From assembly GCA_031411675.1 (NCBI GenBank), contig JANOBN010000398.1:1-40297 (forward strand): 40,297 nucleotides of DNA, given 5' to 3'. Origin of the DNA: Bacteroidota bacterium (GTDB taxonomy: Bacteria; Bacteroidota; Bacteroidia; AKYH767-A; OLB10). The notes beneath the pieces were generated by a model. That model was given only the letters and a program-made list of their open reading frames with translations. It was not told the origin of the DNA and ran no database searches. Every line of letters starts with the position of its first letter. Positions within the stretch are counted from its first letter, which is position 1. Positions 30,637-35,620 of the stretch are shown in pieces. A program made the position numbers and the translations under genes.

Positions 30637-30660
30637 AATTGCCTAGGTTGTTTTTGTAAG

Positions 30661-30966
30661 GCACCGGAATAAATTCCGGTGATATTAATTTCCTCACCTG
30701 TATTGTCATCCAGATCCGCCAGCTGGCGGAGAAGGAACTTTGCTTTGAGCGATGTTGTTCCATAGCAAAATCATTTCGGAGAATGTGGCTGCTAAGATTG
30801 GACATTGCGTCTGCCGTATAGATTCCTCGTACCTCGGAAAGACAAACAATGGGAGAAGGAACTTTGCTTTGAGAAATGTTGTTCTTTACCTAGATCATTC
30901 CGGATAATGTTGCGGCAAAGAGTGAACATTTCGTCAGGCACAGGAATAAATTCAAGCACTATGGAG
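30661..30966 (-). repeat. ~305-bp composite MITE-like repeat (copy B), inverted relative to copy A at 5080-5384
   Basis: The reverse complement aligns module by module with 5080-5384. For example, GGAACAACATCGCTCAAAGCAAAGTTCCTTCTCCGCCAGCTGGCGGATCTGGATGACAATA matches 5278-5338 with 5 mismatches in 61. There is a 7-bp TACGAGG indel. The terminal hairpin 30662-30681 lies 26 nt after the peptidase stop. Confidence 0.85.
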
Positions 30967-31184: not shown

Positions 31185-31760
31185 ATGCCTTCAAATATTT
31201 TGTTTGTCAAGAATATGGTTTGCAATCGCTGTGTGATGGCGGTTGAGGATATTTTGAATAGTGCAGCCATATCATACAGTAAAGTTCTTTTTGGGGAGAT
31301 TCATTTAAAGAATGAATTATCTGATAAGGAAATGGAAATCTTAATCAGCGCGTTGGGAAAAATAGGATTTGAGTTAATTGATAACAGGATGAGCGGTGTT
31401 ATTGAGAAAATCAAGCAGCTTGTAATTAAAAGAGCGAGGAATGAAGTGAAGGATAATGAGAAAAAAACTAAACTTTCCGATTATCTTTCTTCAAATTTGC
31501 ATTATGAGTACACTCATTTAAGCTCTTTATTTTCTTCAGTGGAAGGGCGCACTATTGAGAATTATTTTATTGAACAGCGCATTGAGAAAGCCAAGGAATT
31601 GCTGAAATATGATCAACTGTCTTTAAATGAGATTGCTTTTGAACTCGAATACAGCAGTACAGCACACCTCTCAGCGCAGTTTAAAAAAATTACGGGACTA
31701 ACACCATCTGCTTTTAAAAATATAGGCGCAGAAGCGCGTAAATCGCTCGATAAGGTTTAA
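31185..31760 (+). CDS. AraC/XylS-family transcriptional regulator with N-terminal heavy-metal-associated (HMA) domain
   Basis: The N-terminal ~65 aa look like a beta-alpha-beta-beta-alpha-beta fold carrying the canonical M-x-C-x-x-C motif (MVCNRC, 31214-31231). The C-terminal AraC HTH is LSLNEIAFELEYSSTAHLSAQFKKITGLTPSAFK. Confidence 0.85.
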   Translation: MPSNILFVKNMVCNRCVMAVEDILNSAAISYSKVLFGEIHLKNELSDKEMEILISALGKIGFELIDNRMSGVIEKIKQLVIKRARNEVKDNEKKTKLSDYLSSNLHYEYTHLSSLFSSVEGRTIENYFIEQRIEKAKELLKYDQLSLNEIAFELEYSSTAHLSAQFKKITGLTPSAFKNIGAEARKSLDKV

Positions 31761-31826
31761 CCCAAAGTACTATAAACTTAACCCAAAGTTATATAACGCC
31801 TGCGGCAGGCGTGTGGAATACTTTTG
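31761..31826 (+). promoter_or_regulatory. operator + promoter 1: two CCCAAAGTWWTATAAC direct repeats 21 bp apart, then TACTTTTG -7 box
   Basis: The repeats are cccaaagtactataaac (31761) and cccaaagttatataacg (31782). GTGTGGA follows, then TACTTTTG at 31819-31826. The ATG lies 32 nt downstream at 31859. Confidence 0.7.
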
Positions 31827-31858
31827 TGCCATCAAAAAACATAAAAAAATCACGAAAA

Positions 31859-32647
31859 ATGAAAAAGCTTATTCCACTATTATTTATTCTATCATTCACA
31901 GCTTGTACTAAAGAAGAGTTTGACGTAAACCGTACTAAAGAATTCTCTATTCACTCCGTATCAACAGGAGCTACCTATCAAATTAAAGTTGGCTTACCGG
32001 AAAACTATTCTTCCGATAAAAAATATGCTACAGTATATGTTTTAGACGGAGAGGAGAACTTTGATTTCGTAGCTAAGAAGTGTAAAAAAATAAGTGATGA
32101 TAATTCGATGCAAAATGTACTTGTAATAAGTATCGGTTATGGTAACGATAGAATTCGGGATTATACTCCGACTGTAGCTGATGAAGGAGAAGGCGGAGCT
32201 TCAAAGTTTATGGAATTTATTAAAGGAGAATTAATACCCAAAATAGATAGTGATTTTTATGCTGATACATTAAGAAGTAGCAGAGTTATACTGGGCCATT
32301 CATTTGGGGGTTTACTGGGGGCTTATGCTTTCACCAATTATAATTACGTATTTGGAAATTATATTCTGCTAAGTCCTTCCATATGGTATGATAATGAAGT
32401 AATGCTGCGATTTGAGCAGGAGAATAGAACTTTAAATAATAAAAATCAACAATTAGTCTTTATGGGGATTGGAGAATTAGAAAACGCCGGCAGAATGCAG
32501 GCTCCATTTGAAGCGTTTTATCAGCGGTTATTAAACAATTATACCGGCATTAAAATTTCGAAACACATCGTGCCACATCTTGATCACATGGGCTCAAAAA
32601 ATGAAAGCATTGAAGTTGGATTAAAATTTTATTTTCAGAATAAATAA
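31859..32647 (+). CDS. lipoprotein alpha/beta-hydrolase, putative esterase (IroE/BesA-like esterase family)
   Basis: Lipobox LSFTAC from ATG 31859; the listed GTG 31811 lies inside the promoter. YVLDGEENFDF and the nucleophile elbow GHSFGGL are typical of the 'putative esterase' PF00756-type fold. Confidence 0.75.
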   Translation: MKKLIPLLFILSFTACTKEEFDVNRTKEFSIHSVSTGATYQIKVGLPENYSSDKKYATVYVLDGEENFDFVAKKCKKISDDNSMQNVLVISIGYGNDRIRDYTPTVADEGEGGASKFMEFIKGELIPKIDSDFYADTLRSSRVILGHSFGGLLGAYAFTNYNYVFGNYILLSPSIWYDNEVMLRFEQENRTLNNKNQQLVFMGIGELENAGRMQAPFEAFYQRLLNNYTGIKISKHIVPHLDHMGSKNESIEVGLKFYFQNK

Positions 32648-32688
32648 TCACATATAAATAAACACACCTCCACAAATAATAAAACAAA

Positions 32689-33303
32689 ATGAAAAACTAT
32701 AAGTATTTAATCACCATTCTTTTTATTTTACATTTTACTATAAGTAATGCTCAATCTGATTCAACGATTTCAGTGAGCAAAAAATACCCGGCACGAAAGC
32801 TGACTATTCAACCGGCAATAGGTTTGCATCCGGCATTCTTCTCTGATGTAGTACTGTCAAATTTGATACAGTGGAAGGTAAATAGGCATTTGAGTTTCGC
32901 TTCACACACATCTTATGACATCAATGATGTTTCTATGCGCAATTTCAATTATATAAAGACGAACTATAACTTCTCGTTCAATCAAAAATTTGGTGTAGGA
33001 ACTACCGTGTATAGGCAACAAACCTCACATTCCTTCTTCCTTATGGGCGGCGTAAAATATGATGCTTTTAAGCAGACACTTAATAATCCGGAATTTGAAA
33101 AAGTAGCTGTTAGCGTTAGCTCACTGAGTCCTGATTACGGAGTTTTTTACAATTTAAAGGCCGGCAAGAAGAAATATTTTTTCAGCTTCAGTATGTACGT
33201 GCCGATTTATCCTTATCCGACAAATGGATTTGACATTAATTCTATACAAGCAAACATGGCTAATTTCTCCTTAGAAATGGGAATAGGCATCAGGCTTAAA
33301 TAA
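32689..33303 (+). CDS. hypothetical secreted protein, probable small outer-membrane beta-barrel
   Basis: Signal peptide (ILFILHFTISNAQ), an alternating hydrophobic pattern and aromatic-rich strands. I recognise no family. It is probably co-transcribed with the esterase. Confidence 0.55.
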   Translation: MKNYKYLITILFILHFTISNAQSDSTISVSKKYPARKLTIQPAIGLHPAFFSDVVLSNLIQWKVNRHLSFASHTSYDINDVSMRNFNYIKTNYNFSFNQKFGVGTTVYRQQTSHSFFLMGGVKYDAFKQTLNNPEFEKVAVSVSSLSPDYGVFYNLKAGKKKYFFSFSMYVPIYPYPTNGFDINSIQANMANFSLEMGIGIRLK

Positions 33304-33324
33304 AGCTGAGTATTTTATGAATTG

Positions 33325-33351
33325 AAACGCTCGGAAACGGGCGTTTTTTTT
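33325..33351 (+). terminator. rho-independent terminator (9-bp stem, GAAA tetraloop, T-run)
   Basis: AAACGCTCG-GAAA-CGGGCGTTT is followed by TTTTT, 22 nt after the stop at 33303. Confidence 0.75.
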
Positions 33352-33391
33352 GTTAAAACAATTTCAATCCTTATACATTCAAAATAATATT

Positions 33392-33457
33392 CCCAAAGAA
33401 ATATAATATAATCCCAAAGTAATATAACGCATTTGGAAGGGTGTGGATGTACTTTTG
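33392..33457 (+). promoter_or_regulatory. operator + promoter 2: same direct-repeat architecture
   Basis: The repeats are cccaaagaaatataata (33392) and cccaaagtaatataacg (33413). GTGTGGA follows, then TACTTTTG at 33450-33457. The ATG lies 27 nt downstream at 33485. Confidence 0.7.
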
Positions 33458-33484
33458 TCCTATCAAATTTTAAATAAATATATT

Positions 33485-33649
33485 ATGAAAACAAAATCAG
33501 AATTGGGCCAAAGTGCTCAGAACATCAGCAGAAAAAACTGCAATTGTGAAATATGTACTTGTGAAACCTGTACATGTGGTACTGCTACAAAAAGCGAAGG
33601 CTGTAATTGTGGCGGTTCCTGCAAGTGTGAAGGCACTTGCATGTGTTAA
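33485..33649 (+). CDS. 54-aa cysteine-rich metallothionein-like peptide (six CxC pairs)
   Basis: The sequence is MKTKSELGQSAQNISRKNCNCEICTCETCTCGTATKSEGCNCGGSCKCEGTCMC. All 12 Cys fall in CxC pairs, forming two clusters of three pairs separated by GTATKSEG. The Cys-rich part has no His or aromatic residues. The gene has its own operator/promoter upstream and a strong terminator downstream. The listed GTG 33443 start lies in the promoter. Confidence 0.7.
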   Translation: MKTKSELGQSAQNISRKNCNCEICTCETCTCGTATKSEGCNCGGSCKCEGTCMC

Positions 33650-33651
33650 GT

Positions 33652-33685
33652 AAAAGAGCCGCTCCGAAAGGGGCGGCTCTTTTTT
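33652..33685 (+). terminator. rho-independent terminator (14-bp stem, GAAA tetraloop, T-run)
   Basis: AAAAGAGCCGCTCC-GAAA-GGGGCGGCTCTTTT plus TT begins 3 nt after the stop. Confidence 0.85.
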
Positions 33686-33756
33686 AAATCTATACAATGG
33701 GGAAACAATATTTTCGGTATTTCCCTTCTAAGAAAACAAAAACATATTCAATAAAA

Positions 33757-34167
33757 ATGAATGCAGCACTAATAGGAATTTCAACCGGTTTACTAGTTAT
33801 ACTGGTTATTGCTTTAATTAAGCAAATAGATAAAAAAATAATTTACGGATTGATCCTTACAGGCATCGGGTTTTTGTATGTGGGATTTACCTGGATGGAT
33901 ATTACAGCAATTTCAATAAACATCATGCAGGCAATATTCTTCTTGTTTCTGGCATACTATGGTATTAAAAGTAACCTGTATTTTATGGCAGCCGGTTATT
34001 TTTTGCATGGCATTTGGGACATTGCTTACGATTTATTTGCAAACTCCAGTTTAATCCCTCCTCATTATGATATGTTTTGCTTATCAATAGATTTTACCAT
34101 GGGGTTATATCTGTTGATCATTCAATATCAAACAAACAAGAAGCTTAAACCAGTGACTGCACGCTAG
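33757..34167 (+). CDS. small integral membrane protein (about 4 TM), unknown function
   Basis: From ATG 33757 (MNAALIGISTGLLVILVIAL...) there are four hydrophobic segments. A conserved-looking YFLHGIWDIAYD / PPHYD His-containing stretch is present. The listed start 33697 adds a basic, non-membrane extension. Confidence 0.55.
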   Translation: MNAALIGISTGLLVILVIALIKQIDKKIIYGLILTGIGFLYVGFTWMDITAISINIMQAIFFLFLAYYGIKSNLYFMAAGYFLHGIWDIAYDLFANSSLIPPHYDMFCLSIDFTMGLYLLIIQYQTNKKLKPVTAR

Positions 34168-34199
34168 TATATTCTTAATGTTTACAGCTTACCCATAAA

Positions 34200-34264
34200 C
34201 CCAATAAAGTATAATCGATTCCCAAAGTATTATAACACGTAAAATAACAGGTAATCTACTTTTG
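34200..34264 (+). promoter_or_regulatory. operator + promoter 3: same direct-repeat architecture
   Basis: The repeats are cccaataaagtataatc (34200, degenerate) and cccaaagtattataaca (34221). TACTTTTG is at 34257-34264. The ATG lies 30 nt downstream at 34295. Confidence 0.65.
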
Positions 34265-34294
34265 TCCCACTCTAAAAAATCAAAAACATAAAAA

Positions 34295-35620
34295 ATGAAA
34301 ACCACATCTAAAATCGTAACTTACAATCTTGAAGCAAGCGCATTTCAATGGGAGATTTCTCCCGGAAAAACCATTGAAGCATGGGGCTTTAATAAACAAA
34401 TTCCGGCTCCGGTTTTAAGAGCACAGGCAGGCGATACACTGGTTGTTCGACTGACTAATAATCTACCTGAAGCAACCATGATACATTGGCATGGAATTCG
34501 TATTCCGGCGGCAATGGATGGTACTTCGGCAGTACAAAAGCCAATTATGCCCGGTGAAGTATTTGAATATCGTTTTGAAGTGCCTGATGCCGGAACATTC
34601 TGGTTTCATTCGCATGCCAACGAAACTATCCAGATGGAAAGAGGAATGTATGGTGCTTTAATTGTTGAAGATGATACCAATCTTGTTACTGATGGAGAAA
34701 GGATATTCATGATTGATGACATGAAGCTGAATGAAAACAATGAGTTTACAAAACCAACCTGGTTTCTGCCACGCGCTATTGAAAGACATGATGGACGCCA
34801 GGGTAATACGCTATTGTTAAACGGGAAAGAAGATTTAGCAATCAATGTGAACGGCGGACAGACAGAAAGATGGCGTTTTATCAACTCGTCCAGTGCACGA
34901 TATTTTGTTTTATACCTTGGTGGTAAGTCATTTAAAACTATTGCATCAGATGGTGGCCTTTTGGAGCATCCTCTAACAGTTACCGAAGCTTTAATAACTC
35001 CCGGAGAACGAATCGACATAGCAATTGATTTTACAGAAGGTGAAACATTTGCAATTGAATCATTGGCTTACGACAGAATGACTTTCTTAAAAGCAAAGCG
35101 GGAGACATTTGCAACTGTAAAGGTGGGAGAGAGTAAACCGTCAAAGGCATACATACCTGAAAGACTAAGAACGATTGAGCCGCTTGCCTCACAGGATGCT
35201 GCCATCACCAGAAAAGTAAAGTTGTCAGTTGACCCAAGAATAAGAGATCAAAAGGACTTTAAAATAAATGATAGCACACATGTAAACGACAAGCCGGTGA
35301 TGGTTGGCGAGCTGCAAATATGGGAAGTGTCGAATACAAGCAGAATGGATCATCCGTTTCATCTTCACGGTTTTTTCTTTCAGGTGATTGAAGAGAATGG
35401 TAAAGCACCGGAATACATGGCATGGAAAGATACCGTTAACTTAAAACCAAAAAGCACCATAAAGATTGCATGGATGCCTGATAACCGCCCGGGCATGTGG
35501 ATGTATCATTGTCATATCATTGAACATCATGCAGCAGGGATGATGGCAAACTTTGAAGTGATTGATGGAAGCCGGCCATATCTTAAGACCGTTGCACATC
35601 CGGAAAATCATTGCAATTAA
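34295..35620 (+). CDS. multicopper oxidase (three-cupredoxin laccase/CueO-like), no evident signal peptide
   Basis: All four copper-ligand motifs are present: HWHGIR, FWFHSHA, HPFHLHG and MYHCHIIEHHAAGMM. The N-terminus MKTTSKIVTYNLEAS runs straight into cupredoxin domain 1. Confidence 0.9.
   Translation: MKTTSKIVTYNLEASAFQWEISPGKTIEAWGFNKQIPAPVLRAQAGDTLVVRLTNNLPEATMIHWHGIRIPAAMDGTSAVQKPIMPGEVFEYRFEVPDAGTFWFHSHANETIQMERGMYGALIVEDDTNLVTDGERIFMIDDMKLNENNEFTKPTWFLPRAIERHDGRQGNTLLLNGKEDLAINVNGGQTERWRFINSSSARYFVLYLGGKSFKTIASDGGLLEHPLTVTEALITPGERIDIAIDFTEGETFAIESLAYDRMTFLKAKRETFATVKVGESKPSKAYIPERLRTIEPLASQDAAITRKVKLSVDPRIRDQKDFKINDSTHVNDKPVMVGELQIWEVSNTSRMDHPFHLHGFFFQVIEENGKAPEYMAWKDTVNLKPKSTIKIAWMPDNRPGMWMYHCHIIEHHAAGMMANFEVIDGSRPYLKTVAHPENHCN

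Follow-up and report, generated by a model that had tools for sequence, protein, structure and literature searches.

A candidate copper-responsive regulon of Bacteroidota with tandem direct-repeat operators and an AraC-family regulator carrying an HMA-like domain

The DNA analysed here, referred to as the window, is a 40,297-nt stretch of contig JANOBN010000398.1 from a Bacteroidota bacterium. It contains the gene of a 191-residue regulator, in which a heavy-metal-associated (HMA)-like N-terminal domain is fused to an AraC/XylS-type helix-turn-helix (HTH) domain, followed on the same strand by three transcription units whose upstream regions have a common promoter architecture (Table 1). The units encode a lipoprotein esterase with a 204-residue signal-peptide protein, a 54-residue Cys-rich peptide, and a multicopper oxidase. 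An initial annotation, made from the window alone, had proposed this arrangement to be a metal-responsive regulon. The open reading frames (ORFs) were as it had described them, except that it had omitted the gene of a DUF6010 membrane protein that lies between those of the peptide and the oxidase.

Each of the three intergenic regions contained a pair of 16-bp boxes whose starts were exactly 21 bp apart. All three proximal boxes were exact copies of CCCAAAGTWWTATAAC, whereas the distal boxes were more degenerate, with two mismatches each to CCCAAAGTWWTATAAC in the boxes at 31761 and 33392 and more than three in the box at 34200. Proximal boxes were separated from an exact TACTTTTG box (the -7 box of the sigma-A promoter) by spacers of 21, 21 and 20 nt, and that box from the ATG by 32, 27 and 30 nt, in promoters 1, 2 and 3, respectively. 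A -33 element was absent from all three promoters. Our reading of the sequence agreed with the initial annotation on the box starts, their phasing, the greater degeneracy of the distal copies, the spacer lengths and the distances to the start codons. The composite of a proximal box, 20–21 nt and TACTTTTG occurred three times in the window and not once in 100 dinucleotide-preserving shuffles, while a single box with up to three mismatches was found six times against 2.3 expected, a weak enrichment. The three-site composite architecture of the window exceeds chance.

A map of flavobacterial transcription start sites (TSSs) showed that the sigma-A -7 box, TAnnTTTG, spans -12 to -5 (PMC9723704). 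Based on this placement, the TSSs are predicted about 5 nt past each TACTTTTG box, and not about 7 nt past it as first annotated, so that the proximal boxes would extend from about -49 to about -34 and the distal ones from about -70 to about -55. The two terminators with GNRA loops in the initial annotation both folded as GAAA-loop hairpins followed by T-runs; terminator 2 had been overlooked by a generic promoter and terminator scan and was then confirmed by folding. A generic sigma-70 promoter scan, which is unsuited to this phylum, gave fewer sites in the window than in shuffles, and an Rfam search of the whole window returned no matches.

Table 1. Features of the regulator gene and the three units in the window.
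Feature	Position	Strand	Sequence	Evidence or remark
Regulator gene, 191 aa, HMA-like domain and AraC/XylS DNA-binding domain	31185..31760	+		ORF, Pfam
Regulator N-terminal HMA-like domain, residues 1–67, invariant K9-N-M-V-C13-x-R-C16	31185..31385	+		Alignment, AlphaFold2, Foldseek, hhalign
Regulator AraC-type two-HTH domain, about residues 80–180	31422..31724	+		Pfam, structural matches
Operator 1 distal box	31761..31776	+	CCCAAAGTACTATAAA	1 nt past regulator stop codon; about -70 to -55
Operator 1 proximal box	31782..31797	+	CCCAAAGTTATATAAC	About -49 to -34
Promoter 1 sigma-A -7 box	31819..31826	+	TACTTTTG	Predicted TSS about 31831
Lipoprotein esterase, PF00756, GHSFG nucleophile motif, lipoprotein signal	31859..32647	+		Unit 1, first gene
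204-aa signal-peptide protein, no family	32689..33303	+		Unit 1, second gene
Intrinsic terminator 1	33324..33347	+		10-bp stem, GAAA loop, T-run; -14 kcal/mol (z -3.5)
Operator 2 distal box	33392..33407	+	CCCAAAGAAATATAAT
Operator 2 proximal box	33413..33428	+	CCCAAAGTAATATAAC
Promoter 2 -7 box	33450..33457	+	TACTTTTG	Predicted TSS about 33462
Metallothionein-like peptide, 54 aa, 12 Cys, CxCxxCxCG core	33485..33649	+
Intrinsic terminator 2	33652..33683	+		14-bp stem, GAAA loop, T-run; -25.4 kcal/mol (z -5.9)
DUF6010 membrane protein, 156 aa	33697..34167	+		Pfam DUF6010 3.3e-20; likely start 33757
Operator 3 distal box	34200..34215	+	CCCAATAAAGTATAAT	Most degenerate; recognised by eye
Operator 3 proximal box	34221..34236	+	CCCAAAGTATTATAAC
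Promoter 3 -7 box	34257..34264	+	TACTTTTG	20-nt spacer; predicted TSS about 34269
Three-domain multicopper oxidase, 441 aa	34295..35620	+		Pfam Cu-oxidase_3, Cu-oxidase, Cu-oxidase_2

The C-terminal part of the regulator is an AraC/XylS two-HTH domain, as residues 102–178 were matched in Pfam by HTH_18 (3.4e-18; 66 bits, cut-off 33.6) and HTH_AraC (8e-10; 39 bits, cut-off 26.6). The best structural matches of this domain were AraT, YesN, MarA, SoxS, AdpA and AraC. Pfam showed no AraC_binding or cupin domain at the N-terminus of the regulator, a domain that is typical of many AraC members and is not required of them, and neither Pfam nor NCBIfam showed a MerR domain. The NCBIfam matches were to generic AraC models and fell far below their cut-offs, and that collection had no dedicated model for the regulator.

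The segment K9-N-M-V-C13-x-R15-C16 near the N-terminus was invariant in 26 aligned homologues, C13 and C16 being the sole two cysteines, and a looser NMxCxxC pattern was present in all 77 regulators taken from the loci described below. AlphaFold2 modelled the whole regulator and the isolated N-terminal domain with predicted local distance difference test (pLDDT) scores of 81.5 and 82.3, respectively, and DSSP assigned the same elements to the domain in both models (strands at 5–9, 31–35, 38–41 and 63–65; helices at 14–26 and 47–59). The predicted fold is beta-alpha-beta-beta-alpha-beta. C13 belongs to the loop between beta1 and alpha1 and C16 to the opening turn of helix 1, a placement that corresponds to the HMA arrangement. 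Foldseek comparison of the isolated domain with the PDB gave HMA proteins as 24 of the top 25 matches (probability 0.89–1.0, TM score 0.55–0.68), including TTHA1718, CopZ, ZntA, Atx1, GolB, Hah1, CadA, PacS, domains of ATP7A/B, and MerP. When a profile of 72 N-terminal domains was aligned by hhalign with 38 HMA segments of proteins encoded in the regulator loci (ATPases and other HMA proteins), the match had a probability of 91.7% (E 7.6e-7) with CxxC on CxxC. These analyses support the fusion of an HMA domain to an AraC HTH that had been read from the sequence initially, and we conclude from the models and profiles that the N-terminal domain probably is a divergent HMA-type domain, one that has the fold and the motif and lies below the curated sequence threshold.

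The regulator belongs to a large family. The best 120 protein clusters were full-length, about 191 residues long and 66–100% identical to it, and the fullest name found among them was "AraC family transcriptional regulator". At least 587 relatives were confirmed when a single genome of each GTDB species was scanned, and 80 loci were kept for analysis, from Chitinophagales, Flavobacteriales, Sphingobacteriales, Cytophagales and Bacteroidales. The tandem box started -5 to +7 nt from the regulator stop codon in about 70 of the 80 genomes, whose regulators were homologues of 52–71% identity. Where identity exceeded about 60%, CCCAAAATTnTnTAA-N6-CCCAAAGTnnTGTAA started 2 nt past the stop codon, and the clade at 52–57% identity had a variant, AAATCTTACAAA ... 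CCCAnAATTTCACAAT, which overlapped it.

The geometry of the operator was more constant than its sequence, which drifted with phylogeny. Spacings of 20–22 bp were permitted for the box pairs, and all true pairs had 21 bp; for the spacer to the -7 box 17–25 nt were permitted, and 42 of 45 group-1 sites had 21 nt, with 20 nt in the other three. A 66-nt weight matrix with a fixed spacer, made from 81 distinct sites and used at a threshold of at least 15 bits, identified 127 sites in about 1 Mb of loci from the 80 genomes versus none in shuffled copies. The initial annotation had proposed a shared operator, and its geometry was found to be kept in the 80 genomes and in 74 metagenome contigs (see below). 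Two sub-sites within the box, CCCAAAgT and TrTAA, lie about 10 bp apart and were both conserved, which fits the binding of one two-HTH domain per box. Positions 11–13 of the box were TGT or CAC in two different clades, and this switch was accompanied by changes in both predicted recognition helices (AHLS or AYLS in one, EYTxLSS or DYNYLSN in the other). The spacer had an information content of 0.3 bits or less at most positions and contained no conserved -33 element.

GTGTGGA, which had been reported at two of the three window promoters, is indeed present in spacers 1 and 2, but is not conserved: it occurred at seven of the 127 sites, in close relatives only, and we rejected it as a part of the operator. 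A G-rich element resembling GGGTGTGGA was seen just upstream of the -7 box at 31810–31818 and 33441–33449 of the window and in two further loci (L029 and L034). It was found at seven of the 127 sites versus 0.9 expected, all in one small clade, and could be a lineage-specific promoter feature. A more distant form of the operator was found on a plasmid of Pontibacter actiniarum (NZ_CP021236.1, 7570–7601), where AATCTTGTACA and AATCCTGTACA lie 21 bp apart right past the regulator stop codon. The phasing was kept there although the box sequence had drifted beyond the matrix, and no clear TAnnTTTG followed.

The genes next to these operators were overwhelmingly copper-handling. The first gene after the 127 sites encoded an HMA-bearing protein in 64 cases, these forming one cluster joined via the common HMA domain. 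All 39 of the HMA-bearing proteins longer than 600 residues were P1B ATPases of about 800 residues with a CPC motif, 37 of the 39 had MxxSS, and one such ATPase reached 619 bits with TIGR01511, a model for copper ATPases (cut-off 397). Other first genes encoded Cys-rich peptides (32), DUF326 (Csp-like) proteins (6), plastocyanin/azurin-type lipoproteins, that is, cupredoxins (5), esterases like that of the window (3), CDF transporters (3), DJ-1/PfpI proteins (2) and a multicopper oxidase (1), with the smaller families assigned by Pfam. The multicopper oxidase of the window is outside this count owing to its 20-nt spacer, as the scan used a fixed spacer. Within 6 kb of the regulator, ATPases were encoded in 43 loci, multicopper oxidases in 20, HMA-DUF3347 proteins in 15, DUF6010 proteins in 14 (often immediately upstream of the regulator) and DJ-1/PfpI proteins in 13.

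So that loci were not chosen via the regulator, metagenome contigs were also scanned for the bare tandem box. This motif-first scan yielded 74 contigs, in which the sites were followed by about 50 Cys-rich peptides, four esterase lipoproteins, one multicopper oxidase, one TonB-type receptor and a recurring 185-residue lipoprotein. About one third of the 74 contigs had no regulator gene directly upstream of the site, as expected for a dispersed regulon. Plasmid homologues of the regulator in RefSeq were annotated just as "AraC family", and the genes near them encoded RND efflux systems, HMA proteins, SCO, a four-helix-bundle copper-binding protein, a P-type ATPase and a multicopper oxidase. The predominance of copper-handling genes both at the genome sites and in the motif-first contigs supports the metal regulon proposed in the initial annotation.

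The 185-residue lipoprotein had no Pfam match and followed perfect tandem boxes in eight loci, and in six of these eight contigs the -7 box ended in A (TAnnTTTA). In another contig (L090, site 957, minus strand) a perfect operator and -7 box preceded the gene of a 774-residue protein resembling TonB-dependent receptors; an outer-membrane transporter may thus belong to the regulon in some genomes, judging from this arrangement.

The Cys-rich peptide was the commonest product of the window's unit types both at the genome sites and in the motif-first contigs. It has the features by which metallothioneins are recognised, being small and Cys-rich, with Cys-x-Cys and Cys-x-x-Cys clusters and few aromatic residues. 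Its family comprised at least 74 distinct sequences of 32–59 residues with 6–14 Cys (from L001–L034 and L081–L154), of which 70 had a CxCxxCxC core and just nine had an aromatic residue beyond residue 5. The window peptide had no Pfam or NCBIfam match and was not in a collection of 15 billion proteins, and in a homology search with it no candidate had enough 5-residue words in common. One of 24 relatives touched each of the Pfam families Metallothio_2 and Metallothio_Euk at E of about 0.03, and the best PDB sequence match of the peptide was wheat Ec at E 6; a match to a described metallothionein family was not obtained from Pfam, NCBIfam or the PDB. From its sequences this looks like an unannotated family of bacterial metallothionein-like peptides.

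Taken with the conservation of the regulator and its operator, these findings make it likely that the window encodes a copper-homeostasis regulon run by a one-component HMA-AraC sensor, which would act as a Cu(I)-responsive activator of a class II-like kind. AraC-type proteins often bind direct repeats near -35, with about 16–20 bp per monomer, and the architecture of the window promoters appears to match this. In the mechanism that we propose, two regulator molecules would bind the two direct-repeat boxes, with one bipartite two-HTH domain per 16-bp box. Because the box starts are two helical turns (21 bp) apart, the two protomers would be on one face of the DNA, and the proximal protomer would occupy the -33 position. 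Cu(I), and possibly also Ag(I), would be bound in the cytoplasm by Cys13 and Cys16, and the Cu(I)-bound regulator would gain occupancy of the tandem boxes or contact with RNA polymerase. The most likely route would be a metal-bridged or metal-stabilised pairing of HMA domains; metal-bridged pairing is seen in the crystal structures of CopZ and Hah1, which were among the fold matches. The products switched on in the window would be the esterase lipoprotein with the 204-residue secreted protein, the metallothionein-like peptide and the multicopper oxidase. The spacing fixed to the base pair, the absence of a -33 element and the location of the boxes upstream of the core promoter argue for activation via RNA polymerase contact rather than repression. 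An activator-dependent promoter had also been the view of the initial annotation, with which a spacer of fixed length and almost no information is consistent.

Several points weigh against this interpretation. The Pfam HMA model (PF00403) gave no match to residues 1–77 even at E values up to 10, which is why the HMA label was probed by fold and profile; the sequence profile was weak against the PDB (E of about 0.3 to ATP7A, ZntA and CopZ), the Foldseek E-values were modest (2e-3 to 0.1), the one exception among the top 25 matches was an ACT domain of the same fold, and the loop reads N-M-V-C-x-R-C instead of the usual G-M-T-C-x-x-C. On the DNA side, the -7 box in the clade preceding CopA was mostly CAnnTTTG and not TAnnTTTG, and the site of the Pontibacter homologue, which is 38% identical to the regulator, was not scored by the weight matrix. 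In the regulon itself, the esterase, the 204-residue protein, DJ-1/PfpI and DUF6010 are without a known copper role, and three sites precede a His-rich CDF transporter. CDF transporters usually are exporters of Zn, Co or Cd, and copper may thus be just a part of the signal.

Given its CDF and DJ-1/PfpI members, the regulon also allows for what we consider the main rival explanation, namely that the regulator and operator are as described and the CxxC pair senses another soft metal (such as Zn, Cd, Hg or Au) or thiol oxidation by means of a disulfide switch, as in RclR. A CxxC pair can serve as a redox switch, HMA domains that bind Zn, Cd, Hg or Au (ZntA, CadA, MerP and GolB) were among the fold matches, the CDF transporters after three operators have His-rich ends, DJ-1/PfpI proteins are often stress-linked, and the RclR regulon is itself tied to copper (PMC7527725). 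Most of the controlled genes, in contrast, encode copper-specific proteins, namely Cu(I) ATPases (which have the CPC and MxxSS motifs, and one of which scored on TIGR01511), multicopper oxidases, cupredoxins and Csp-like copper storage proteins. Moreover, Zn/Cd-type HMA domains carry an Asp in the metal loop, which the regulator loop does not have, and no classical oxidative-stress genes followed the operator. We regard a signal other than copper as unlikely.

It is decidedly less probable that the regulator is a repressor, or that it activates constitutively, independent of metal, and has an HMA-like domain purely for dimerisation or structure. The regulator gene and operator 1 have no terminator between them, such that read-through could supply transcription to be blocked by the bound regulator, and the ferredoxin-like fold also occurs in non-metal domains such as ACT. 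The boxes, however, lie upstream of the core promoter and cover neither the -7 box nor the TSS, the fixed spacing and lack of a -33 element are what RNA polymerase contact would require, and both cysteines are kept without exception throughout the phylum. When AraC-family proteins use direct repeats close to a promoter, they nearly always act as activators. Lastly, the boxes could have been a dispersed or mobile repeat that came to these intergenic regions by chance and has no tie to the regulator, as the weak enrichment of the single 16-mer in the window and the near identity of some regulator-ATPase segments between genera, suggestive of mobile DNA, would allow. We rejected this explanation, which has next to no probability, on the basis of the weight-matrix scan, the downstream gene families and the motif-first contigs: nearly all sites face a downstream gene at a fixed distance from the -7 box, the families are narrow and metal-related, the geometry is constant in spite of sequence drift along the phylogeny, and neither inverted ends nor an association with transposases was found.

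The proposed HMA-AraC sensor has features in common with several known systems. As with AraC at araBAD and other class II activators of the XylS/RhaS type, it has a two-HTH domain and direct half-sites repeated at 21 bp, of which the proximal one adjoins or overlaps the equivalent of the -35 element. The I1–I2 half-sites of AraC and the sites of other class II AraC/XylS activators have such a layout, and the promoter is weak in the absence of the activator. Unlike AraC, the sensor part is a 67-residue HMA-like fold in place of a cupin/jelly-roll domain for sugar binding and dimerisation, the promoter is of the Bacteroidota sigma-A type (-7 box TAnnTTTG), the ligand is presumed to be a metal, and no distal looping site was seen. 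The fold, and a CxxC placed at the beta1-alpha1 loop and the first turn of the helix, are those of CopZ, Atx1, Hah1 and the N-terminal metal-binding domains of P1B ATPases (PF00403). Cu(I)-bridged dimers or clusters are known for several of these proteins, for example 2qif and 1fe0, which were among the fold matches. In contrast to them, the domain falls short of the Pfam HMA threshold, has NMVCxRC and not GMTCxxC, is fused to a DNA-binding domain and would sense copper instead of trafficking it.

The regulator would resemble CueR (MerR), CsoR and CopY in sensing Cu(I) in the cytoplasm through thiolates and in controlling CopA, multicopper oxidase and copper-buffering functions. Its fold is unrelated to theirs, and it differs from the MerR-type DNA distortion of CueR and from the de-repression of CsoR and CopY; its operator is upstream of the core promoter and not inside an over-long -35/-10 spacer as for CueR-type regulators. 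A small Cys module that reports Cu(I) to a DNA-binding module is an idea it has in common with the CopZ-to-CopY relay of Enterococcus and with the archaeal CopR/CopT, the latter having an HTH fused to a TRASH metal-binding domain in one polypeptide. The likeness ends at the idea, as those systems have a TRASH fold or separate proteins, other DNA-binding families and other phyla. Among AraC-family activators, RclR of E. coli and YbtA of the Yersinia high-pathogenicity island have regulons that touch copper stress; RclR senses through cysteines (PMC7527725), and YbtA responds to a copper-siderophore complex (PMC8725597). Both differ from the regulator in having a classical AraC-type N-terminal domain, and their signal is hypochlorous acid (HOCl) or a siderophore and not an HMA-bound metal.

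A survey of marine bacteria gave only two-component and extracytoplasmic function (ECF)-type homologues of copper systems for Bacteroidota (PMC10141476). The initial annotation knew of no characterised HMA-AraC sensor, and our literature search, in a library without most subscription journals, likewise turned up none. Together, the evidence points to an unrecognised metal-sensing domain that would act at promoters of the classical AraC-type layout, and to an undescribed class of copper sensor. In a broader proposal, cytoplasmic Cu(I) would be sensed in Bacteroidota mainly by HMA-AraC proteins, a family distinct from MerR/CueR, CsoR, CopY and ArsR that works via Cu(I)-bridged domain pairing, by which two AraC domains are brought onto a tandem operator with 21-bp phasing, and has a regulon with widespread, essentially unannotated metallothionein-like peptides and an esterase module; we see the chances of this as evenly balanced.

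Copper sensing is poorly defined in Bacteroidota, a phylum that dominates gut, soil and marine particle communities. The regulator is a testable candidate, with two candidate ligand cysteines, an operator resolved to the base pair, predicted TSSs and a predicted regulon. If the interpretation is correct, the few metalloregulator families would be joined by one with a new combination of domains, and Bacteroidota genetic tools would gain a compact copper-inducible expression module. Confirmation would also reveal a family of small Cys-rich genes that is not in the protein collection searched, and would mark the esterase lipoprotein, the 204-residue secreted protein, DUF6010, DJ-1/PfpI and the 185-residue lipoprotein as copper-stress genes.

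Some regulator segments appear to have moved between genera. Segments comprising the regulator, operator and CopA with their upstream flanks were nearly identical across genera, with further neighbour genes in common, in two sets of three loci (L048/L050/L069 and L061/L063/L066) and in two pairs (L060/L062 and L067/L075). One of the sets comprised Zunongwangia, Allomuricauda and Croceitalea, and the other Mucilaginibacter, Chryseobacterium and Dysgonomonas. This similarity suggests that regulator-CopA segments are carried on a conjugative or other mobile element. That the copies preceding CopA are on segments common to genera almost unchanged bears on the spread of metal resistance.

The remaining observations concern the individual genes of the window and its relatives. 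The window-type esterase family was found downstream of the operator in six loci (L022, L029, L085–L087 and L146). The pair of esterase followed by the 204-residue protein recurred in four (L011, L022, L028 and L034), and the esterase was without this partner after the operator in L029, L085–L087 and L146. The nearest named relatives of the esterase include siderophore (enterochelin) esterases, with weak scores. Its partner, termed an outer-membrane protein in the initial annotation, had no Pfam or NCBIfam match.

The multicopper oxidase has the copper-ligand motifs HWHG, HSH, HPFHLH and HCHIIEH in its translation, and its nearest NCBIfam model was CueO, on which it scored 216 bits, below the cut-off of 525. 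Members of its family also followed the operator in two other loci (L004 and L100). By eye, the first cupredoxin domain starts from residue 18 and no Sec or Tat signal is visible, and the relatives in L004 and L100 likewise had no visible signal. CueO and PcoA are periplasmic, and a cytoplasmic location, if that is what the sequence implies, would be unusual for a multicopper oxidase. The DUF6010 gene of the window lies past terminator 2 and has no operator of its own; a -7 box with one mismatch, TATTTTCG, is located near 33709.

The 550-bp gap upstream of the regulator contains an 84-nt direct repeat, the copies of which (30728–30811 and 30852–30935) are 82% identical and 124 nt apart, along with another repeat of 25 nt (30652–30676 and 30929–30953); neither had an Rfam match. 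In eight of the genome loci (L009, L012, L020, L024–L026, L031 and L033) a protein of about 215 residues with a guanylate/adenylate-cyclase domain was encoded directly upstream of the regulator, and its C-terminus has a YFCSxxC motif that resembles the metal-binding motifs of YHS and TRASH domains. The genes that flank the regulon in the window are unrelated to metals, and comprise glycosyltransferases, type IX secretion proteins and an M28 peptidase upstream, and a LuxR-type response regulator and a Kelch-repeat protein downstream.

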